A stretch of 64,000 nt of DNA from Escherichia coli (GTDB taxonomy: Bacteria > Pseudomonadota > Gammaproteobacteria > Enterobacterales > Enterobacteriaceae): NCBI RefSeq assembly GCF_003790525.1, contig NZ_CP033635.1; one strand, given 5' to 3'. This document shows positions 48,869-49,385 of this stretch, in pieces (within the stretch, counting starts at the first letter, position 1; the number at the start of each line of letters is the position of its first letter). Both the position numbers and the translations under genes were made by a program. The notes beneath the pieces are model-generated. The model had not been told where the DNA came from. It did no database searches and saw nothing but the letters and a program-made list of their open reading frames with translations.

Positions 48869-49324
48869 TTATTCAACACCTGAATCCCCCGCCGCTTCTC
48901 TCCCCTTTATAAAACGCCCCTTCCGGAATCCAGACCGCTGCAGTGCACGACGAAGATGACCGTATACCGTCTTGTCATTCTGCCCCGTCTCTTCTGTAAT
49001 CTCCGCAATACTTAAACCTCTGTAATACCGGTTCAGTACCGCTCTGCGCTCTTCCAGCGTCAACACACCTCCGGCCGCTCTCAGATTCAGCATCGACTTA
49101 TTCAGAATACAGCAGGCCTCTCCGGTAAAAAGAATACGAACAATATCTGTATACTCATCATCACAGAATACAAAATAATATCTGAATGACCTGCCTGACT
49201 GCACCCTTCTTCTGTCTGATATGGCATCTTCTATATATCTGATTCGACTGCTTACGGTTCCAAATATCTCTCGCAGGGCTTTTTCAAAATAAATATCTCT
49301 CGTCGCCAGGATTATATCCAGCAT
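48869..49324 (-). CDS. Small LuxR/GerE-type HTH regulator (possibly sigma-70 region-4-like)
   Basis: 151 aa; C-terminal LTLEERRAVLNRYYRGLSIAEITEETGQNDKTVYGHLRRALQR; SD-like gagg 9 nt upstream of ATG. Confidence 0.55.
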   Translation of the reverse strand: MLDIILATRDIYFEKALREIFGTVSSRIRYIEDAISDRRRVQSGRSFRYYFVFCDDEYTDIVRILFTGEACCILNKSMLNLRAAGGVLTLEERRAVLNRYYRGLSIAEITEETGQNDKTVYGHLRRALQRSGFRKGRFIKGREAAGDSGVE

Positions 49325-49385
49325 CTCTGTACCTCATTATATCCCGGGGGACTCCCCCCGGGACAGATATCTAAATCCTGACCTG

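Follow-up and report, generated by a model that had tools for sequence, protein, structure and literature searches.

The question raised by this locus is what a small, apparently DNA-binding protein does directly behind a surface adhesin gene at the end of a prophage, and whether the GC-rich hairpin lying between the two genes joins or separates their expression. The locus is part of a 64,000-nucleotide stretch of the Escherichia coli contig NZ_CP033635.1 (RefSeq assembly GCF_003790525.1), which we refer to as the window, and the protein is encoded there on the minus strand by an open reading frame (ORF) of 151 residues. This ORF is predicted to be a genuine gene whose product is a small DNA-binding regulator of the cytoplasm, and profile comparison identifies this product as a highly diverged, remote member of the ORF-156 family (phrog_6585). 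As judged from sequence, the window carries a divergent version of a cassette of three genes that recurs in prophages and consists of an adhesin, the regulator and a probable micropeptide. Our best guess for its expression is co-transcription, with partial termination or 3'-end stabilization at the hairpin. The parts of the cassette are the following:

49386-51002, minus strand: YadA-type trimeric autotransporter adhesin, 538 residues (ORF list)
49325-49385, minus strand: intercistronic spacer of 61 nt between the adhesin stop and the start of the 151-residue ORF
49340-49365 (core 49343-49362), minus strand: GC-rich hairpin within the spacer
49332-49341, minus strand: Shine-Dalgarno sequence GAGG (49332-49335) with a perfect TATAAT (49336-49341) directly before it (read from the sequence)
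48869-49324, minus strand: 151-residue ORF of the predicted regulator (ORF list)
48662-48757, minus strand: tentative candidate for a 31-residue single-helix membrane peptide, MKITKAAFIFALSVWSVAVICLLLFVLVVLG (ORF list)

The original prediction, made from the letters of the window alone, described the protein as a small LuxR/GerE-type regulator with an atypical N-terminal domain, and the ORF stands where it was placed. The reading frame starts at an ATG at 49324-49322, 7 nt after the Shine-Dalgarno sequence, and a longer ORF is excluded by an in-frame stop four codons before this ATG. The sole significant Pfam match is to Sigma70_r4_2 at residues 87-130 (30.9 bits against a cut-off of 25.7), while the Pfam GerE family (PF00196) gives no match at E ≤ 1 and the NCBIfam model UhpA reaches only E = 0.033. 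Residues 1-80 have no match in Pfam or NCBIfam.

A structural model was obtained with AlphaFold, for which the single-sequence run was unusable (predicted local distance difference test score, pLDDT, of 37) and the run on the joint family alignment described below reached a pLDDT of 76. The N-terminal domain of this model alternates strands and helices (β1 2-7, α1 11-21, β2 28-30, α2 31-41, β3 49-54, α3 56-65, β4 71-75) and is followed by a helix-turn-helix (HTH) domain with helices at 90-101, 106-113 and 117-130 and a tail of low confidence at 135-151 (pLDDT < 50). In Foldseek comparisons with the PDB, full-length response regulators of the NarL/FixJ type (FixJ, StyR, RcsB, DesR) rank first, with probabilities of 0.93-0.97 among the top matches, and Sigma4 domains match the C-terminus with a probability of 1.0; the top viral structural match is likewise a response regulator composed of a receiver and an HTH. 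The predicted four-helix HTH fold is superposable on those of GerE and NarL-C. The modeled architecture is thus the NarL/FixJ layout with a truncated, four-strand receiver-like (CheY-like) domain joined to a sigma4/LuxR-type HTH, which gives substance to the atypical N-terminal domain of the original prediction. The LuxR/GerE-type label survives at the level of fold, where the best full-length neighbors are LuxR-type proteins of the NarL/FixJ group, but not at the level of sequence family, where Sigma70_r4_2 takes the place of the missing GerE match.

The resemblance to NarL/FixJ regulators (FixJ, StyR, RcsB, DesR, EvgA and NarL, including the phosphorylation-independent "atypical" members) lies in the order of an α/β receiver-like domain followed by a four-helix HTH, and it has clear limits. 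The receiver-like part of the window protein comprises four β-α units in about 80 residues, against about 120 in a full receiver; strand 5 and helix 5 are missing, so that the (β-α)5 receiver is incomplete, and the structural matches span 70-75 residues out of receivers of 120-135 residues. No Pfam match to Response_reg (PF00072) or GerE was found, and there is no partner kinase gene nearby. The acidic pair expected after β1 is replaced by T8-R9-D10, and β5 is absent together with its lysine, although D55 is present and invariant after β3, where the phospho-acceptor lies topologically (the equivalence of residues being derived from secondary structure and not from residue-level superposition). 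Because the acidic pair has become Thr-Arg and strand 5 and the lysine are missing, control of the modeled protein by phosphorylation is unlikely. Kinship with GadE or DctR (YhiF), suspected from the N-terminal "ILATRD", was rejected when hhalign of the K-12 proteins against the joint alignment gave probabilities of 2.3% and 0.7%.

Direct searches for relatives reach little beyond the protein itself. A word-indexed search of 5.8 billion clusters returned only copies at least 94% identical to the 151-residue protein, an exhaustive phmmer search of 1.84 billion representatives returned only near-identical copies and fragments (at least 88%) and marginal matches confined to the HTH, and tblastn against 50,697 phage records found no homologue beyond these same two kinds of match. 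The close copies are all from E. coli save for one Salmonella record. Searching the phage records with the adhesin instead leads to the Eib prophages of E. coli ECOR-9, P-EibA and P-EibC (AF151091, AF151674), in which ORF-156 (orf-156A/C) occupies the same place after a prophage YadA-type adhesin and a stem-loop. ORF-156 corresponds to phrog_6585 with an E of about 1e-99, and the window protein matches this family weakly in hmmscan (E = 3.3e-4, residues 3-75, with no stretch passing on its own). BLASTP against ORF-156A gives a collinear, full-length alignment at 21% identity (E = 2e-4), and hhalign against an alignment of 20 ORF-156 family members gives a probability of 93.9% and an E of 1.5e-7 over 128 columns.

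In the joint alignment of the two groups the residues T8, Y12, E14, R40, D55, G68, L88, E92, G114 and K118-T119-V120 are invariant, so that the proteins share an N-terminal ILATR-x-x-Y-x-E, an Asp after strand 3 and a K-T-V in the recognition helix. They are of similar length (156 and 151 residues), and both genes precede a tiny putative membrane ORF and the end of the prophage. In contrast to the window protein, which passes the threshold for Sigma70_r4_2, ORF-156 has no Pfam match, its HTH is weakly nearer to LuxR/GerE (its profile leans toward LuxR-family HTH domains of the PDB at E = 0.07-0.3), and its linker is 15 residues longer. When the joint alignment is used for a profile search, the sole addition to the records from E. 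coli and Salmonella is a homologue in Citrobacter farmeri that belongs to the branch of ORF-156. In the literature on ORF-156, on the accessions of the regulator protein and on genes downstream of eibG we found no functional work.

The position of the gene is as consistent as its sequence is divergent. A 541-bp query covering the regulator, the spacer and the start of the adhesin 3' end has matches in 183 of the 5426 complete E. coli genomes searched, at 321 places, and the best copy is at least 99% identical in 182 of the 183; a 2.6-kb query that includes the adhesin gene also finds 183 genomes, and these are the same ones, each containing both regulator and adhesin. Strains SMS-3-5 and BEN2908 are among those listed with the pair. 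Wherever a copy was inspected, the regulator lies behind a YadA-type gene, both in prophages (the window, L001, L019 and L020) and in islands (L002-L004). The island copies adjoin a c-type lysozyme inhibitor gene and keep an 81%-identical remnant that consists of the end of the tail-fiber assembly gene and the hairpin upstream of the adhesin; the islands therefore appear to be decayed prophages. The block of high identity runs from 48650 to about 50364 and takes in 220 bp downstream, the regulator, the spacer, and the adhesin anchor, stalk and repeats.

Beyond these close copies, the annotated order in P-EibA and P-EibC is orf-191 (DUF4376-like), stem-loop, eib, stem-loop, ORF-156, ORF-60 and eaa, and the gene order is the same in P-EibA, P-EibC and GER2 (L005, L006 and L007 compared). 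Loci of the P0040 and P0035 types (including L013 and L016) present a tail fiber or spike gene, a YadA-anchor adhesin, a spacer of 82-86 nt, an ORF-156-like gene and DinI on the opposite strand, and in the P0040 loci a DUF4376 gene precedes the adhesin as well. ORF-156 family genes in these prophages thus sit, as in the window, directly downstream of a YadA-anchor adhesin and near DinI at the prophage end. On the basis of this comparison the cassette is an accessory ("moron") unit at the tail-fiber end of lambdoid prophages. A homologue of another kind was also observed: the P0053-type ORF-156 homologue (L010-L012, gene at 4001-4495; listed in 391 collection blocks) stands alone in an AT-rich stretch by hpaBC, with no adhesin upstream and a PerC-family gene about 3 kb downstream.

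In the window itself, the E. coli chromosome runs through ruvA, ruvC, yebC, nudB, aspS and yecD into the tail end of a lambdoid prophage, whose features around the cassette are:

53721-57626, minus strand: gpJ (prophage)
51992-53662, minus strand: collagen-like tail fiber (prophage)
51402-51977, minus strand: DUF4376 tail-fiber assembly protein (prophage)
51003-51401, minus strand: upstream region of the adhesin, with two promoter-like sites, a hairpin (51363-51388) and a G7 tract (51036-51042)
48238-48486, plus strand: DinI-like gene (PF06183, E = 2.3e-19), at the prophage end and adjoining yecD

The tail-fiber gene carries long collagen-like G-X-Y repeats (GPQGPKGETGERGPA...), and spurious ORFs are abundant there on both strands. 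A plus-strand stem-loop at 48556-48580, GGCGTGTT-n9-AACACGCC followed by TTTCTGATATTT, is likely the terminator of the DinI-like gene; a minus-strand transcript running out of the cassette would encounter no strong structure before reaching this one. Rfam gives no match across 48000-51600 at E ≤ 1, and the PADLOC defense models give none.

Matches to the YadA anchor in Pfam (YadA_anchor, PF03895, E = 1.2e-16) and in the PDB (2lme, E = 1.9e-17) indicate that the 538-residue product of the first gene of the cassette is a trimeric (type Vc) autotransporter, and its layout is that of a signal peptide, a variable head, 33-residue repeats, a coiled stalk and the anchor. The stalk repeat at 49808-50364 comprises 5.6 copies of a 99-bp (33-residue) unit with 98% identity among copies, and among the loci seen the length of the adhesin varies by strain from 346 to 555 residues. 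Stalk and anchor are common to the prophage and island copies, with the head domain swapped between these contexts. Adhesins of the Eib type and their relatives matter for serum resistance, immunoglobulin binding and chain-like adherence in Shiga-toxin-producing and extraintestinal E. coli, and expression of the Eib adhesins shifts strongly with growth conditions, eibG mRNA rising about 3-fold in static versus shaken growth (PMC4352079). A study of eYadA in the avian pathogenic E. coli strain TW-XM (PMC12955052) seemed relevant for the higher motility reported on deletion and for the poor complementation, and it was set aside; that eYadA belongs to another locus (cueR-ybbJ) and the gene downstream of it encodes an unrelated lipoprotein.

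Upstream of the adhesin, a promoter scan of the minus strand finds two promoter-like sites, at 51374-51347 and 51186-51157, and the segment 51254-51481 shares 81% identity with the sequence that precedes the adhesin in the island copies. The hairpin at 51363-51388, located past the tail-fiber assembly gene and ahead of the adhesin, qualifies as a canonical terminator on the plus (antisense) strand only, where a T6 run follows it. Read in the sense direction it is preceded by an A-tract and lacks a trailing U-tract, so that the hairpins on either side of the adhesin both lack a sense-strand U-tract. The G7 homopolymer on the minus strand lies about 35 nt upstream of the adhesin ATG, in the leader or promoter region, and its length is unchanged in the single other copy compared (L001). 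Three of the nine G6 sites of the window fall in the 2-kb cassette, which is a post-hoc observation. Poly-G tracts upstream of the Moraxella trimeric adhesin gene uspA1 give rise to phase variation. A CAGRGGGGG motif common to the spacer hairpin and the adhesin upstream region was considered and dropped as not significant (2 sites against 0.58 expected, with 15 of 100 shuffles reaching 2).

The third gene is tentative. In Eib-type cassettes the regulator is followed by an ORF of 42-45 residues (ORF-60, phrog_9340) with a basic N-terminus and a conserved GAMCFMLFVWLGGVV helix, and in L016 the ORF of this type overlaps the regulator stop. The 31-residue ORF of the window has no family match, and it aligns without gaps and flush at the C-terminus with three peptides of the ORF-60 family (z = 4.95; 1 in 2000 composition-matched shuffles reaches the score). 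The block of high identity ends 12 nt past its stop. We therefore tentatively place this ORF in the cassette, where it probably holds the ORF-60 position, and it could be a small membrane protein or a toxin-like peptide. A 25-residue ORF at 48802-48879 that overlaps the regulator stop was rejected as the ORF-60 equivalent, as it shows no similarity (z = -0.99).

Between the adhesin and the regulator lies the spacer, for which the original prediction of a 61-bp gap on the same strand holding a strong hairpin with no U-tract was confirmed in every particular. The core of the hairpin reads CCCGGGGGACTCCCCCCGGG on the plus strand and CCCGGGGG-GAGU-CCCCCGGG on the sense (minus) strand, that is, an 8-bp stem closed by a GAGU loop, which can be extended to 11 bp, 8 of them G-C pairs. 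Its folding energy of -23.2 kcal/mol for 32 nt (z = -3.66) is matched by none of 200 shuffles, and the 20-mer occupies a single site in the window even at 3 mismatches, with 0.01 chance matches expected. Of the two marks of an intrinsic terminator it has the GC-rich stem-loop and lacks the immediate U-tract: the tail is AUAUAAUGAGG, a terminator consensus scan makes no call, and the plus strand has no T-tract either. In this it differs from the equivalent stem-loops of the P-EibA, P-EibC, GER2, P0040 and P0035 loci, which are textbook intrinsic terminators followed by five to eight U, and its stem is the stronger. The 5' part of the spacer (TTCTGACAG...) is similar by eye to Eib-type spacers.

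The perfect TATAAT directly after the stem is accompanied by GTCCCG at the -35 position, with 2 of 6 matches, and on the sense strand the promoter scan finds no promoter-like site from the hairpin to about 50644, or about 1.2 kb upstream of the regulator. Natural variation in the hairpin is almost nil. In L001 the G-run of the loop has lost one base while the stem is unaltered, and a copy disrupted by an insertion sequence (IS) has one C>A change. IS421, of the IS4 family, has entered the hairpin in several genomes including L002 and L004, with a 12-bp target duplication (GGGGGAGTCCCC), and so parts the adhesin from the regulator:

IS421 insertion: L002, 5488-5560 and 6830-6860; L004, same junctions; equivalent to 49347-49358 in the window

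The GC palindrome may be a preferred target of the IS4 family. Other alleles are truncated or frameshifted in the regulator itself. In L003 (strain ECGC74) a 35-bp deletion between short direct repeats (CAGATATT), at about 5290-5330 and equivalent to about 49150-49185 of the window, shifts the reading frame of the regulator, and an N-terminally truncated form of 111 residues (P0004) counts 116 member sequences, against 309 in the full-length cluster, which is the largest.

Taken as a whole, we consider it about an even call that the ORF is a genuine DNA-binding regulator related to ORF-156, that the cassette is co-transcribed past a hairpin that lacks a U-tract and acts on the RNA, and that regulation is independent of phosphorylation. 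The pointers to co-transcription are the common strand, the gap of only 61 nt, the lack of a nearby promoter-like site on the strand of the regulator and the missing U-tract. Transcription of the cassette would start in the promoter region of the adhesin itself, and the hairpin would halt a fraction of the polymerases and/or shield the 3' end of the adhesin mRNA after cleavage in the AU-rich stretch behind it, with the outcome that much adhesin and little regulator would be made. The regulator may then control transcription without being phosphorylated, and its likely targets would be the promoter of the adhesin or other surface and motility genes of the host, as suggested by the regulators that fimbrial operons encode at their 3' ends.

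Known systems offer a parallel for each half of this proposal. The intercistronic stem-loops of papB-papA, a processing site, and of malE-malF, a stabilizer of the repetitive extragenic palindromic (REP) type, set unequal expression within their operons. As in the window, a stable hairpin follows a highly needed first cistron and precedes an AU-rich single-stranded stretch, although the window hairpin, unlike that of malE-malF, does not belong to the REP elements, occurs only once in the window and has no Rfam match. PapX, SfaX, MrpJ and PefI-SrgD are small DNA-binding proteins encoded on the same strand just downstream of adhesin structural genes, as is the regulator here, and the cross-regulation that these 3'-end regulators of adhesin operons exert is directed at motility or at further adhesins. 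PapX resembles MarR, and MrpJ resembles Xre. All these regulators accompany chaperone-usher fimbriae and not autotransporters, so that the likeness is one of functional analogy and extends to gene position only. SrgD, encoded with PefI, is itself a LuxR-type protein (PMC3224193).

Several observations weigh against this proposal and give room to other explanations. The full terminators with U5-U8 in the same position of homologous cassettes imply that the two genes are, at least for the most part, insulated from each other in those cassettes, and the P0053-type branch implies that the regulator is not strictly reliant on an adhesin promoter. Together with the perfect TATAAT after the hairpin and with the intact regulator ORF in copies where IS421 separates it from the adhesin, they are also the evidence for the explanation in which the hairpin stops adhesin transcription effectively and the regulator forms a separate unit with a weak or activator-dependent promoter of its own that overlaps the hairpin. 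We regard this as unlikely, though deserving of serious attention, as hairpins with no U-tract terminate E. coli RNA polymerase poorly, the -35 match is poor, a TG extension is lacking, no promoter is called by the scan, and a start 7 nt after the TATAAT would fall past the Shine-Dalgarno sequence and yield a near-leaderless mRNA. The perfect 20-bp inverted repeat could instead act as DNA, either as an operator for a dimeric HTH protein (for autoregulation or as a roadblock to read-through) or as a hot spot for recombination and IS insertion. The sites of LuxR-type dimers are typically of the size of this 8-4-8 palindrome, which lies just upstream of the ribosome-binding site of the regulator, and IS421 has inserted exactly within it. 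This explanation seems rather improbable to us, given that no second copy exists in the window, the adhesin upstream region included, that Eib-type cassettes carry unrelated terminator hairpins here rather than a conserved operator, and that a pure G/C palindrome is most simply explained as an RNA stem.

The proposal is further weakened by the differing adhesin heads and by the distal upstream region that is only 81% identical between contexts, which is not what a tightly co-evolving pair of regulator and operator would predict, and by the uniformity of the 182 near-full-length copies, which are all at least 99% identical and so vary too little to reveal covariation in the hairpin or selection on the ORF. 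The frequency of truncated, frameshifted and IS-interrupted alleles indicates moreover that the regulator gene is dispensable in many hosts. With the narrow spread (E. coli and single Salmonella and Citrobacter records) and the extreme divergence from ORF-156, these alleles could mean that the ORF is a passenger in decay, at present without function in most of its hosts, behind a hairpin that is the remnant of an adhesin terminator after loss of its U-tract. We judge this improbable, since the full-length allele forms the largest cluster, the fold is confidently predicted, T8, Y12, E14, R40, D55, G68 and K118-T119-V120 are kept across the superfamily, and a good Shine-Dalgarno sequence is retained. 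As for the nature of the protein, RefSeq names it a "sigma factor-like helix-turn-helix DNA-binding protein" and some database records a sigma-70 family factor, and with Sigma70_r4_2 as its sole significant Pfam match and a region 4.2 (the -35-binding HTH) present, it might be taken for a minimal alternative sigma factor that steers RNA polymerase to cassette or phage promoters. This idea has very little chance of being right and is contradicted by the predicted fold: region 2 has no match in Pfam or NCBIfam, the latter giving only sub-threshold matches to sigma-factor C-termini (TIGR02937, 19 bits against a cut-off of 42.9), and residues 1-80 are modeled as a receiver-like β-α-β arrangement and not as an all-helical sigma2. 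As region 2 is missing and the N-terminal domain is α/β, the modeled protein does not qualify as a sigma factor.

Returning to the proposal of a co-transcribed cassette with an RNA-level hairpin, a bolder extension of it is a long shot in our estimation. Adhesin, pseudo-receiver/sigma4-like protein and membrane peptide could form a self-contained circuit of surface-to-gene feedback on prophages, in which adhesin export or the state of the envelope would decide whether the peptide retains the regulator or lets it go, much as in a miniature sigma/anti-sigma pair. Once free, the regulator would reprogram surface or motility genes of the host or act as a competitor for -35 elements. If this were true, the ORF-156 superfamily would be an unrecognized class of phage-borne switches of host behavior linked to Eib-type adhesins.

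The GenBank records of P-EibA and P-EibC already show the gene order and both stem-loops in their annotation, and the ORF already bore its generic RefSeq name. What is new here is the remote homology between the 151-residue protein and ORF-156, the predicted fold of a truncated pseudo-receiver with a sigma4/LuxR-type HTH, and the recognition of a recurrent cassette of adhesin, regulator and putative micropeptide; no cis-linked regulator of Eib-type or related adhesins is described in the literature searched. At the level of mechanism this is unsurprising, and its relevance is to specialists in E. coli adhesins and prophage accessory genes. The four-strand receiver remnant with its sigma4-like HTH would represent a minimal form among phosphorylation-independent proteins of the response-regulator type. 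A small predicted DNA-binding protein has been kept behind adhesins in two lineages that are joined only by profile methods, and this conservation makes it a candidate for regulation of the adhesin or for cross-talk between prophage adhesins and host behavior.

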